25,914 bases of DNA from a virus, in IMG/VR virus record IMGVR_UViG_3300025469_000026, one strand, 5' to 3'. Of the stretch, positions 8,681-24,379 are shown piece by piece. A model generated the notes under the pieces. The model worked only from the letters and a program-made list of their open reading frames with translations. It had not been told where the DNA came from and did not search any database. Within the stretch, counting starts at the first letter, position 1. Each line of letters starts with the position of its first letter. The translations under genes and the position numbers were made by a program.

Positions 8681-8729
8681 TTTGAATCTCCTTTACTGCA
8701 AAACTGATTCCTTTGTTTAGTTCCACTTA

Positions 8730-8908
8730 GTGAACTACCCCCATGTCTAAATCCGGGGGCTTCCGGTTTCAACGGCATCTGCGTAGGTTGAGGACTTGCG
8801 TCCCAACTTACGTCTTACGTTGCCTCCACCGGCTGTAGCGCCAATCCCTGACGCCAGTATCCGTAGACCTTCGTCTCGGATATTCCTTGCCGCATTTATA
8901 TCGCGGTC
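8730..8908 (-). mobile_element. tnpB: IS200/IS605 remnant: tnpB 3' end (53 codons) plus right end / omegaRNA region, with no left end
   Basis: Translates as DRDINAARNIRDEGLRILASGIGATAGGGNVRRKLGRKSSTYADAVETGSPRI*; DRDxNAAxNI is the conserved TnpB C-terminal RuvC motif. It is followed by GAAG, an imperfect hairpin CCCCCGG..ATGGGGG and the terminal GTAGTTCAC. GAAG/TCAC obeys the IS608-type guide/cleavage pairing rule. Confidence 0.85.
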
Positions 8909-10174
8909 TTAAGCATGGAACCCGAACGCATAAGCATTCTTGTTAGGCTGGCAGCAATACAGATTCGTAGCCAACTTCAAAAATACTGCATTCATGCTAG
9001 GATTGTCGTACTGCTGCGTTTTACGAGTACCAAAGTTCCAATCTGGATTATTCGTTGTGCGCAGTTTGAATGTCGATGGGTCAAGGAAGTAAATTGCTTC
9101 CGATGGCTGAATAATCGCATTCGATGGCAAATTCGAGTTCGTTGGAGAGAAATTGATTGCCGCTCCAGTGCTGTCATAGAACTGTGGAGTCTGATATGCG
9201 ATTGTTGCAGTGTTCGATCCAATACCATCCTTCAACTGCGTATTGCCTGTCGATCCTGCTGATCCATTGATCGGAATGTAATACTGAGCTACTGCTGAAG
9301 GTGCCAACGGGTCTTTGAAAATCTCTGTTCCGTTGAAGTTAATGGAACTCCAGCTTAGATTGTGGTCACTATGCTGCGTATCGCGGTAATAGGCCATAAG
9401 AGACTTCGCAATCGCCTTGAAACCAAAGACGTTTGTGATTCCCAACTTCGGCTTACCACCCCACATTTCGCACTGAGAACTCAATTGAATCAATGTATCA
9501 AAATCAATCTGCCCAGGCCCGCTAGTTGCAGGAGAAGACGAACTGCTACTGTAGTTTCCTTGACCACAATAGACCGGAGTCACGTTAATCGCCTTGCCAA
9601 TCGCACCATTGCGTAACTGTTCGCCATAGGAAAGATAACGGTTCCCATAAAGCGATGTGTCGATAGCGTTGTTCAGCGCTTCATCAAGGCCGTTTGATGC
9701 CTTATGACGGTCATCACTTACCGTCGAAGATGAATTCTGTCCGTGACGGAAAGCATCCATCGCAAGCATCGTATTGATGTTTTGCATCATAGCACTCATG
9801 AAGATTGAATAGAGATTAAAGATTCTCGACGGACCAGAGTTGATAACTCCGCCGTCCGGTCCCATCTCCCAATCACTATACGGGAAGTTTGATTGGTATC
9901 CCTTCTCGTAGAACTTCAGTTTGTCTGTGATCTGCTGGCGCATCAACGTAACTGTCTGCGCAGGATCGATTGCAGAACCGTTAGGAGTTCCATACAAAAT
10001 CGGCTCTGTCATGCCAGCACCGCCAAGATACGGTTCTGCTACTCCAGCATGGCGAAGTTCGTCAAGAAACGGAGTCCCAACGAAAAACTCGTTCCACACA
10101 ACTTCATCACGAACAGACTCTAGGTTCGCGCTGTCAACTTCAGAAAAAGTTGGATCATTCTGCACGTATGGCAT
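8909..10174 (-). CDS. Major capsid protein (probable HK97 fold)
   Basis: 421 aa, directly after the scaffold-like gene, AAAGGA RBS. Patterns GG...EPILYG, NSG...IFNL, NGL..AL and final NLYC.QP match MCP-type sequences as I recall them. Confidence 0.75.
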   Translation of the reverse strand: MPYVQNDPTFSEVDSANLESVRDEVVWNEFFVGTPFLDELRHAGVAEPYLGGAGMTEPILYGTPNGSAIDPAQTVTLMRQQITDKLKFYEKGYQSNFPYSDWEMGPDGGVINSGPSRIFNLYSIFMSAMMQNINTMLAMDAFRHGQNSSSTVSDDRHKASNGLDEALNNAIDTSLYGNRYLSYGEQLRNGAIGKAINVTPVYCGQGNYSSSSSSPATSGPGQIDFDTLIQLSSQCEMWGGKPKLGITNVFGFKAIAKSLMAYYRDTQHSDHNLSWSSINFNGTEIFKDPLAPSAVAQYYIPINGSAGSTGNTQLKDGIGSNTATIAYQTPQFYDSTGAAINFSPTNSNLPSNAIIQPSEAIYFLDPSTFKLRTTNNPDWNFGTRKTQQYDNPSMNAVFLKLATNLYCCQPNKNAYAFGFHA

Positions 10175-20001: not shown

Positions 20002-20325
20002 TTAAATCCCCGTGTAGTCGTTCTTACGCTTCGGCTTTTTCCACATATCCTCAAGAATAGGACACATCTCTGGCGCAGACGAATGGAGTCCTTGTTCCTT
20101 ACGTGAAGTCTCACTGTAGTATGGACCACAGATACGATCACACTCGGATTGTTTTTCTTGTTGCGTCATAGATTTTGTCGCATGAAACCCACTGTTTTAA
20201 CGGTGGGCTGAATGCGATTTTCCTTTCGTTTGACAAAGTAACGTAAAAGATTTTGGTTCAAGATTTCCTACCTCGTCACTGTCGTACAAAACAAGATACT
20301 TTGAGTTTGTGCTCAATTTTTCCAT
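20002..20325 (-). pseudogene. Small gene apparently interrupted by a 78-nt IS-left-end-derived insert
   Basis: ATG 20325 with AAGGAG RBS gives MEKLSTNSKY...LEPKS and then hits TAA at 20197-20199 inside the insert. Deleting 20170-20247 joins it in frame to MTQQEKQ...DYTGI* (81 codons). Confidence 0.5.
20160..20253 (+). repeat. 94-bp exact duplicate of 23137-23230 (10 nt of flank plus IS left end and truncated promoter)
   Basis: Base-by-base identity checked; the copies diverge exactly at the -10 box. Confidence 0.95.
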
Positions 20326-20346: not shown

Positions 20347-20381
20347 ATGCGCGTGCCGGGTTGGTTACCGGCTACGCGCAT
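20347..20381. promoter_or_regulatory. GC-rich intergenic hairpin
   Basis: ATGCGCGT-GCCGG-N8-CCGGC-T-ACGCGCAT, 13-bp stem. Confidence 0.55.
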
Positions 20382-20401
20382 CTCTCCTCGTAAGGTACTT
20401 G

Positions 20402-22738: not shown

Positions 22739-23146
22739 TTATTTTCTCGTGATCCCCCTTCTTGCTCTCACTAGTGCCTCTGCTACCGCATCTAGACTGT
22801 CCTCATGAAGACTGCTCAACCATTTATCTTCATCCATAACTTTCATCACTTTTGGATGATCTCTCCACGTAACCTCTTTAGTGTGTAGAAGTTCATGAAC
22901 AATAACAACTTCCAACTCTCTTCTGAAATACTCTCTATCTGTGTTCGTCCTATCGTTAGGATGACGTAGAATAATCTTCTGTCTATGACGAATAGGGCAA
23001 ACCTTACAGTTTCCTAATTTATTTCCCATCTCTTCCGCATTACTTATCACAATATCAAAATCGATATGGTCTAATCGGAGTTGCGGTTGCCAATAGGATA
23101 GATACTCCTTGGCTTGCTGGAGTTCCTTGTCTTCTAGTTGCGTCAT
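22739..23146 (-). CDS. Putative zinc metallopeptidase-like protein (HExxH)
   Basis: VVIVHELLHTK motif, preceded by a W...L.L....I and G.C pattern typical of phage zincin-like proteins. Confidence 0.65.
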   Translation of the reverse strand: MTQLEDKELQQAKEYLSYWQPQLRLDHIDFDIVISNAEEMGNKLGNCKVCPIRHRQKIILRHPNDRTNTDREYFRRELEVVIVHELLHTKEVTWRDHPKVMKVMDEDKWLSSLHEDSLDAVAEALVRARRGITRK

Positions 23147-23361
23147 AGATTTTGTCGCATGAAACCCACTGTTTTAACGGTGGGCTGAATGCGATTTTCC
23201 TTTCGTTTGACAAAGTAACGTAAAAGATTTACGCTTAAAAGATACGGCGGGACACGTCGGACTTTAAGCGCGTGGAGCGGATATGAGACTTGCCAGATGT
23301 TTTGGAAAGCAATCCGCGATGAAACGTGAATCCCATGAATTTATTCGTGGGAGGATGTCAA
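23147..23361 (+). mobile_element. Complete non-autonomous IS200/IS605 miniature element (215 bp): left end, promoter, tnpB tail / omegaRNA and right end
   Basis: Left hairpin GAAA-CCCACTGT-TTTA-ACGGTGGG; right hairpin GAAT-CCCATGAA-TTTA-TTCGTGGG then AGGATGTCAA. Guide GAAA predicts target TCNT, and TCAT (23143-46) is the left junction. Guide GAAT predicts TCNA, and TCAA is the right end. The empty site restores an ATGA stop/start overlap. The internal KDTAGHVGL* resembles a TnpB C-terminus. Confidence 0.88.
23207..23235 (+). promoter_or_regulatory. Sigma70-type promoter inside the mini-element
   Basis: TTGACA (23207-12), 17-nt spacer, TACGCT (23230-35). Confidence 0.6.
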
Positions 23362-23381
23362 TTCTTTTCCTTTTCGATTTC
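23242..23381 (+). ncRNA. Predicted TnpB omega/reRNA: scaffold to 23361 plus an approximately 20-nt guide TTCTTTTCCTTTTCGATTTC
   Basis: TnpB guide RNAs derive from the tnpB 3' end, the right end and the adjacent flank. The ends given here are estimates. Confidence 0.5.
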
Positions 23382-23966
23382 CTCTTTCAATTGCTTCCAA
23401 AGAGTCTCCATGTCGATCCTCTCCTTACCCGGATACCAGCACGACGGTCCTTGCGCTTTAATAACCTTATTGAGTGCTTCTACAGCCTTCCATACTTCAT
23501 CAGATAGTTCTCCATCATCCGCAAGATCGTCACACCATTCATCTCCGTCAAGTTGATGCAAGTAGTGAGGCTCTGCAATAACCACGTGCATCTCCGGCTC
23601 CTCACCGCGCTTCGTCGCCTCTTCCAACTGCCAGTACATCTCATCTAACAGTTGATCTTTATCCCAAAAATACTTGTCCCGCGCATCATCAACTGTTGGC
23701 GTGTTGCCATCCCATTTAGCAACGGGAAGAGCGTAGTATTTATCGCAATCTATCTTTGCTTGACATGATCGGCATCGAGTTTCTCCTTGGCGCATCACTG
23801 ATCCGCAAGCGCACTTCTGATGAGTGCAACCTGACCACCTCGCCCCATGCTCACTGCTAGGATTGTCGCCGGGGTAAAATACTCCAGTACGAGACTTCCA
23901 GCCTATTTCAGAAACTTTCTTGGCAGCTTCATCGCTATTGTACATCACTACTTTTTCTTCTGACAT
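23358..23966 (-). CDS. Hypothetical protein with Cys motifs (CTHQKCACG, CRSC); its stop codon is now supplied by the IS right end
   Basis: Likely start MSEEKV at 23966 after GGGAGAGG; about 202 aa. Confidence 0.7.
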   Translation of the reverse strand: MSEEKVVMYNSDEAAKKVSEIGWKSRTGVFYPGDNPSSEHGARWSGCTHQKCACGSVMRQGETRCRSCQAKIDCDKYYALPVAKWDGNTPTVDDARDKYFWDKDQLLDEMYWQLEEATKRGEEPEMHVVIAEPHYLHQLDGDEWCDDLADDGELSDEVWKAVEALNKVIKAQGPSCWYPGKERIDMETLWKQLKEEIEKEKN

Positions 23967-23980
23967 CTGATCCTCTCCCA

Positions 23981-24379
23981 TTATCGCACTAACCGATACT
24001 CCCATGCGTTTGAGTCCACAATCCTGCGCTTCTCAATCACATGACACCCATACTCTGGCAAGCGTAAATCACGAATACGGCTCTTAACGCTGGAATCACA
24101 GACGAATACATTCTCTTTTTCTTTTATAAACGCCTGCAACCTCCACGGAATCCACCACTCATGATTCCTCATCAGTCGCAACACAATCCCATTTAACGTT
24201 TTCCTATCGGGATCAGCAGCCTTGAAATTATACATTTCCTTGGCTTTCTGTTCCGCGTTCTCGTATCCAAAATCAACTAAGAACTCATATCCTTTGCTCT
24301 CAAGAAAATCAGCCGCACGCTTCACTTGAGAGGACACCTTCACGTTGTTTTCCTTGCACCACTGATTCAATTCGCTCAT
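23981..24379 (-). CDS. Hypothetical protein with a C-terminal winged-HTH-like motif
   Basis: 132 aa; SRIRDLR...G..IEKRR.....WEYRL resembles a phage HTH motif; AGGAGAGG RBS. Confidence 0.7.
   Translation of the reverse strand: MSELNQWCKENNVKVSSQVKRAADFLESKGYEFLVDFGYENAEQKAKEMYNFKAADPDRKTLNGIVLRLMRNHEWWIPWRLQAFIKEKENVFVCDSSVKSRIRDLRLPEYGCHVIEKRRIVDSNAWEYRLVR

Follow-up and report, generated by a model that had tools for sequence, protein, structure and literature searches.

The stretch 23147-23361 of the IMG/VR record IMGVR_UViG_3300025469_000026 is a 215-bp protein-free, non-autonomous element of the IS200/IS605 type (PATE), carried by a phage from peat soil. The record was analysed at its full length of 25,914 nt, and this whole stretch is called the window below. 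Elements of this kind have already been described; the present one is a clear example and nothing new in type, and by itself it leaves existing knowledge unchanged. Its two ends, its insertion site and its occurrence in more than one copy can be read directly from the DNA (Table 1). The window belongs to a tailed-phage genome and encodes a portal protein, a large terminase, a methylase and an HTH protein; all genes near the element lie on the minus strand. Among isolated phages those of Tunturiibacter (Acidobacteriota) come closest, with a TerL identity of only 27%, and at least 19 metagenome runs from peat or wetland contain the window's stretch. Outside the window, the phage's early region (L032:1562-2242) was also seen to encode a protein for which Pfam has a precomputed match to Acb3 (anti-CBASS).

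Table 1. Coordinates of the element, of its flanking genes and of related copies (positions of the window unless a locus is given).
Feature	Coordinates	Strand	Remarks
Left cleavage/target tetranucleotide TCAT	23143..23146	+	Predicted TAM for the cognate TnpB; reverse complement of the ATG+A of the 135-aa ORF
PATE, 215 nt	23147..23361	+	Hairpin ends, guide rule, folds, homologous ends elsewhere
Left guide GAAA	23161-23164	+	Directly 5' of the left hairpin; 14 nt between TCAT and GAAA
Left imperfect palindrome CCCACTG-TTTTAA-CGGTGGG	23165-23184	+	Inside the longer stem GCATG...TGAATGC
Promoter-like TTGACA (23207-12), 17-nt spacer, TACGCT (23230-35)	23207..23235	+	Faces the right end
tnpB 3' coding tail remnant KRVERI*	23265..23282	+	Frame continuous with a peat contig
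Structured stretch	up to 23327	+	
Right guide GAAT	23328-23331	+	Directly 5' of the right hairpin
Right hairpin CCCATGAA-TTTA-TTCGTGGG	23332-23351	+	
10-nt tail AGGATGTCAA	ends at 23361	+	Last four bases (TCAA) are the right cleavage site
Predicted omegaRNA guide, 3' flank TTCTTTTCCTTTTCGATTTC	23362..23381	+	From established TnpB biology; single occurrence in the window
Upstream phage ORF, 215 aa, PHROG 11053	23358..24005	-	TGA stop (23360..23358) inside the element's TCAA
Downstream phage ORF, 135 aa, HExxH motif	22739..23146	-	ATG = 23146..23144, inside TCAT
Second left-end copy	20155..20253	+	84 nt of left end (20170-20253) and 15 nt of outside flank
ORF Y, 56 aa, Cys-rich, uncalled, MTQQEKQSECDRICG...	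20002..20169	-	ATG abuts the second left end
Ca. Ethanoperedens thermophilum PATEs	L001:5815-6260, L008:2310-2740, L009:5520-5960		TTAC/AAAG, TCAG/GAAC, TATATAAT box after the left hairpin

An earlier note on this DNA had described a minimal protein-free element of 215 bp, composed of a left end, a promoter and a right end with the tail of tnpB, and every feature that it listed is present in the sequence. Subterminal imperfect palindromes are found at both ends and resemble each other (CCCACTG..CGGTGGG and CCCATGAA..TTCGTGGG). Counted from the foot of the left hairpin, the left site TCAT stands 18 nt to the 5' side, and the 10 nt that follow the right hairpin end in the right site TCAA. In IS608, as has been reported (PMC3201880, PMC5934647), the left hairpin has AAAG at its foot, which reads the left site TTAC 19 nt further 5', and on the other side GAAT reads the right site TCAA, at a distance of 10 nt on the 3' side of the right hairpin. 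The guide-tetranucleotide rule holds at both ends of the phage element (TCAT with GAAA, TCAA with GAAT). By the last-base rule GAAA predicts TCA-T, and TCAT was found at the expected distance, for which the chance would otherwise be 1 in 256. The proposal that both cleavage sites follow from the guides is thus borne out by a geometry like that of IS608, and also by covariation in the relatives described below. When the element was folded (both strands, as RNA and as DNA), it was more stable than its shuffles (z = -2.9, -3.1). The ORFs lying wholly within it are all of 33 aa or less; none was called by the gene callers and none had a family match. The parts kept are the left end, a linker of about 35 nt and the last ~100 nt, which hold the tnpB stop region and the right end and probably correspond to the 3' part of an omegaRNA scaffold. 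Two other identities for 23147-23361 were considered and dropped: a REP/RAYT element, because the ends show IS608 geometry and the right end is linked to tnpB, and an intrinsic terminator, because none was predicted. It was also seen that the "-35" hexamer TTGACA (23207-23212) is perfectly complementary, in antiparallel sense, to TGTCAA, the six bases that close the element (23356-23361); the two could pair if an RNA began further upstream, and the match may be due to chance (~5%).

The ends go well beyond what coincidence would produce; they have relatives elsewhere, and some of these lead to tnpB. The exact 23-mer of the right hairpin was found at 12 loci in GTDB genomes, ten in archaeal MAGs and two in bacterial MAGs (L004 and L011). 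At the ten archaeal loci the 23-mer runs on into AGGA(T/C)GTC(A/G)-N, beyond which the flanks are unrelated; at the two bacterial loci it stands without the right-end tail. Among the tail-bearing relatives the right guide and the right cleavage site covary (GAAT/TCAA here, and GAAC/TCAG, GAAG/TCAC, TAAG/TCAC and GGGC/TCAG), in that the last base of the former pairs with the last base of the latter. On a groundwater contig (L018), a tnpB frame with OrfB_IS605 and Cas12f1-like TNB domains (Pfam) is followed by a right end to which the last 34 nt of the phage element (23328-23361) are identical. In addition, a peat contig matches 23265-23340 exactly and has a different sequence upstream, and the joined reading ...HQHHHGELTPKRVERI* runs in one frame; for comparison, the tail of the tnpB in L005 has EFTPVE. 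From this single frame 23265-23282 is identified as the end of a tnpB-like ORF, so that about 97 nt of a relative's 3' end have been kept. Three gene-less copies of 380 nt in Ca. Ethanoperedens (L001, L008 and L009) share a homologous left end, GCAGAAAG-CCCAC...GTGGG-ATGAATGC, and their left pair is AAAG/TTAC, as in IS608.

Searches for wider relationships gave the following results. Folding of the last 135 nt of nine relatives produced no common scaffold beyond the terminal hairpin, the scaffolds being too diverse to align. The window had no match in Rfam, which is uninformative because genuine tnpB loci gave no Rfam match either. Neither the element nor the surrounding 3 kb had a blastn match among phages and plasmids. 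In IMG/VR no occurrence of the exact left-end and right-end patterns or of two loose-end sequences was found, and a degenerate right-hairpin pattern picked up two phage hairpins that were rejected as unrelated. No tnpA or tnpB was detected in the window plus 10 kb further upstream (36 kb of phage examined), and no cognate TnpB, TnpA or full-length parent was recovered. Three further observations concern similar structures. In a Thermoplasmata MAG (L007:6566-6700, minus strand) the same right hairpin and the tail ...GGATGTCAC adjoin the apparent 3' end of a tRNA gene, the left end being absent from the stretch in view. In a Haliscomenobacter MAG (L004:1533-1620) the hairpin CCCA(T/C)GAATTTATTCGTGGG occurs twice, 20 nt apart, without an IS605 tail, and looks more like a REP-type repeat. 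In the window itself, an orphan tnpB C-terminal tail (DRDINAARNI...) stands directly behind the capsid gene at 8710-8911 (minus strand), together with a right end of a different IS200/IS605 family, which has a GAAG guide, the hairpin CCCCCGGATTTAGACATGGGGG and TCAC and likewise obeys the last-base rule.

The insertion site could be reconstructed by joining the flanks. With the element in place, 211 non-coding bases separate the 215-aa ORF from the 135-aa ORF. Joined without it, the gene strand reads ...GAA AAG AAA TGA CGC AAC..., so that stop and start overlap as ATGA and an AAGGA box precedes them. When the element is present the upstream ORF ends in AAT TGA, the TGA coming from the reverse complement of TCAA, and the C-terminus of the upstream protein is changed from ...EKEKK* to ...EKEKN*, with no other change. 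The claim of the earlier note that insertion took place at a former ATGA overlap, for which the right end gives a replacement stop, is upheld by this reconstruction. At both known sites the element lies 3' of TCAT. In element-free IMG/VR relatives, which have 63-80% identity in the 215-aa protein and different downstream genes, the same junction is ATGA in L013, L014 and L017, like the reconstructed one, and GTGA in L015 and L016. ATGA overlaps are also common in this genome, as had been stated, since they make up 10 of the 38 called junctions in L032 (20 kb of the same phage). That both flanking ORFs were left intact holds for their reading frames and not for the expression signals of the second one. 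A GGAG-type box stands before nearly every phage gene and the 135-aa ORF is preceded instead by ggtttcatgcgacaaaatctATG; this gene has kept its frame and has lost its ribosome-binding site and translational coupling. We also noted that population variants (L019 and L023) carry the same element and that in their version of the 135-aa gene the similarity breaks off abruptly at about 95 nt from the left end (from 23050 leftwards), which marks a mosaic breakpoint close to the insertion.

The counterpart without the element was sought in several ways. More than 30 contigs contained no empty allele, and every contig reaching the junction carries the element at ~100% identity. Among the contigs obtained from four runs none connects the two flanks directly, and TCAT plus 14 nt of flank gave at least 120 low-complexity matches in IMG/VR, none related to the phage. 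In the 90% protein cluster of the upstream ORF, 12 of 12 members end in ...EKEKN and none in ...EKEKK. An omegaRNA consists of the right end and a guide from the 3' flank, and the TAM is the transposon's target (PMC8612924, PMC10055086). On the basis of this established biology a guide from the element would be expected to match the empty allele, as had been proposed; the allele itself was absent from the contigs just mentioned. At the junctions of the element-free relatives (amino acid identity of 80% or less) the predicted guide had no match.

A direct repeat of 99 nt with one mismatch (20155-20253 and 23132-23230) revealed a second left end, which the earlier note had overlooked and at which no right end was found. 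This second left end (20170-20253) also lies at TCAT, in agreement with the junction motif assigned to the first site. The outside flank common to both left ends is TTCT[T/A]GTTGCGTCAT, identical at 14 of 15 positions. The homologue of ORF Y in L013, where there is no element, starts ATGACGCCTGAAGAA and has an ATGA overlap with the upstream open frame; the gene start ATGACGC...GAA is found in L013 as well, so that the two gene starts are natively similar. Since this similarity exists and a 15-nt flank is not predicted by TnpA transposition, we suspect that the shared flank derives from gene conversion between the copies or from segmental recombination. Near this second site, a strong imperfect hairpin (GCGCGTGCCGG...CCGGCTACGCGC) occupies 20349-20385 in a 148-nt gap behind a 162-aa gene, and it has no U-tract.

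Additional copies were found outside the window. A single 2.4-kb assembly (L038; ENA ERZ27249778 k141_302501) has at 190-500 a full element before ORF Y; this copy differs at two bases close to its right end (GGGAGTATGTCAG), and the AT-rich sequence that flanks it on the right is unrelated. An AT-rich orphan gene follows this element in the same orientation, and searches in either length class gave no homologues of it. Because at least 18 other contigs show the window's arrangement, unlike L038, the latter may be an infrequent variant of the phage or may have been assembled chimerically at the repeat; in both cases its right half is a further copy. A wetland metatranscriptome contig (depth 3.6) runs from 23256 to 23353, then TGTCAA, and then into yet another flank. 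Together with L038 this contig indicates that the element is present in several contexts. The search proposed earlier for a parent and other sites was productive with respect to copies (the second left end, L038 and two metagenome contigs) and did not yield a parent TnpB. Branches in the assembly graph at 23132 and 23230 were considered as signs of a longer parent element; this was rejected, as the breaks are caused by the 99-nt repeat, that is, by the second left end. It may be added that the two left ends and the single right end (23361) bracket a 3.2-kb segment with five phage genes, and that this segment could in principle be excised by TnpA.

We propose that the element, with its 215 bp, arose by deletion from an IS200/IS605 element that carried TnpB. 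It would have been mobilised in single-stranded form by a Y1 transposase (TnpA) of other origin, presumably the host's, and inserted on the 3' side of TCAT, which would be read by the left guide GAAA. In this compact phage the TCAT sites that spare ORFs are mostly reverse complements of ATG-A starts, many of them in ATGA overlaps, and surviving insertions would for this reason sit there. The TCA-N right end of the whole family would then happen to restore a TGA stop. The element is by now fixed in a phage lineage widespread in peat metagenomes, and it may have the capacity to provide a guide RNA against the element-free junction (TCAT + TTCTTTTCC...), for which rightward transcription and a compatible host TnpB would be needed. 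Mobilisation in trans and omegaRNA function are in this sense what we infer from the anatomy of the element. For the explanation as a whole we put the probability at about three in four. Several findings count against it: no tnpA or tnpB lies in the 36 kb of phage examined, only about 97 nt of scaffold identical to a parent have been kept, the shared 15-nt flank is unpredicted by simple TnpA transposition, and L038 is possibly chimeric.

The earlier note went further and saw a self-expressing guide-RNA transposon, adapted to hide at the ATGA junctions of phages and producing from its own sigma-70 promoter an omegaRNA against the empty allele. We regard this reading as unlikely. Both known sites were former ATGA overlaps and TCAA restores the stop, as adaptation would have it; the question is how often such sites would be hit anyway. 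In 19.4 kb of L032, with the element loci left out, there are 221 TAM tetranucleotides on both strands, 197 of them (134 + 63) inside ORFs. The ORF-sparing sites comprise 10 ATGA overlaps, 8 non-overlapping ATG-A starts and 6 intergenic sites; one of the 8 starts is that of locus 1 itself, and 23 ORF-sparing sites are counted overall. With the two occupied sites added back, about 12 of 25 permissive sites are overlaps, and to find two out of two at overlaps has p ~0.23. TCAT specificity and the loss of gene-breaking insertions are thus sufficient to explain the placement, roughly half of the ORF-sparing sites being ATGA overlaps already. Moreover, the TCA-N right end is common to the archaeal relatives and therefore ancestral to the family rather than a phage adaptation, and the restoring of a stop would be a by-product of the family's chemistry. 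The lost Shine-Dalgarno box of the downstream gene also argues against an adapted element, as does the L038 copy, which stands before a co-oriented gene with no overlap on its right side. As to self-expression, the phage genes run in the opposite direction, so that a rightward RNA would need an internal promoter. TTGACA-17-TACGCT matches the consensus at 9 of 12 positions (6/6 + 3/6), and a consensus promoter scan did not list it because the second hexamer reaches only 3/6. A 9/12 site arises in 15.5% of dinucleotide shuffles of the 215 nt and 45 such sites occur across the window; the match is statistically unremarkable and not beyond chance. In favour of a promoter stand the perfect -35 box at 17-nt spacing (1.4% of shuffles) and the archaeal PATE relatives, which have a TATA-like box in the corresponding position behind the left hairpin. 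The -35 box and the spacer fall within the duplicated left end and the -10 box just beyond it, where the second copy has TTGGTT. The sole hint of RNA is the low-depth metatranscriptome contig of a sibling copy, which lacks the left end and starts at 23256, about 14 nt downstream of the predicted start; contigs give neither strand nor start. The need for an internal promoter, the archaeal box and the start of this contig are weak hints of expression. Neither the "self-expressing" nor the "junction-targeting" part of the earlier reading was sustained.

Another explanation would make the element a phage weapon or homing device: a guide-only cassette that borrows the host's TnpB to cut element-free co-infecting phages, the element and its flanks then being copied by recombination. 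It would account for the presence of the element in all of the more than 30 contigs, with no empty allele on record, and for the abrupt divergence of the left flank in L019 and L023, as co-conversion would leave; a second IS605 right-end remnant in the same window also speaks for it. Drift and ordinary phage recombination predict fixation and mosaic flanks equally well, however, no TnpB partner was recovered, and the nearest element-free relatives mismatch the guide, so that we hold this explanation to be quite improbable. Least probable, and very much so, is a domesticated or incidental regulatory insert, whose hairpins and 211-nt spacer would uncouple the 135-aa gene, or from which a rightward transcript, antisense to the 215-aa gene at its 3' end, would arise. 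The loss of the Shine-Dalgarno box and of coupling, the strong structure on both strands and the retention of the left end alone before a second gene start are consistent with such a role. Against it, no terminator-like site was seen, there is no conservation signal (all copies being near-identical), and transposon origin accounts for every feature unaided. We therefore retain the non-autonomous transposon as the preferred reading. As such the element is a natural guide-only IS200/IS605 mini-element in a virus, in which both cleavage sites can be read from DNA guides, and an example of how an insertion with TCAT and TCA-N ends can fit into an ATGA stop/start overlap so that two open reading frames remain.

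Among known systems, IS608 of Helicobacter pylori agrees with the phage element in the order of its right-hand parts (GAAT guide, hairpin, 10 nt, TCAA) and has a left site at a like distance of 18-19 nt from the hairpin. It differs in carrying tnpA and tnpB and in targeting TTAC through AAAG, whereas the phage element is gene-less and uses TCAT with GAAA. For Geobacillus stearothermophilus, Meers et al. (2023) reported PATE-like elements, which "often encode omegaRNAs" and for which TnpB has to be provided in trans, with TTCAT and TTTAT used as TAMs, the TAM being the transposon's target (PMC10055086). These elements are, like the phage element, protein-free, with TnpB/IscB-like ends, and have an omegaRNA module and a dependence on TnpA and TnpB in trans, both predicted in our case; they reside in a bacterial chromosome, whereas here the carrier is a phage, the TAM would be TCAT and only about 97 nt of parent-identical scaffold are present. 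The Ca. Ethanoperedens PATEs are closer in their ends: they are gene-less, with a homologous left end (GCA.GAAA-CCCAC...GTGGG-.TGAATGC), an identical 23-nt right hairpin and a promoter-like box after the left hairpin. They are, however, archaeal and 380 nt long, use TTAC/AAAG and TCAG/GAAC, and have an unrelated interior. Protein-less IS200/IS605-type elements with palindromic ends were reportedly first described as the PATEs of Haloquadratum walsbyi, in a haloarchaeal chromosome, and their link to guide RNAs is said not to have been recognised at that time. The question raised is whether phages merely tolerate such elements or use host TnpB with them in phage-phage competition. Virus-borne mini-CRISPR arrays use host Cas proteins against related viruses and consist of CRISPR repeat-spacer units, not of transposon ends. 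If the reading with a borrowed TnpB were true, TCA-type ends would let the cassette ride in ATGA overlaps with the genes unbroken, and the phage element would be a transposon-derived analogue of these arrays.
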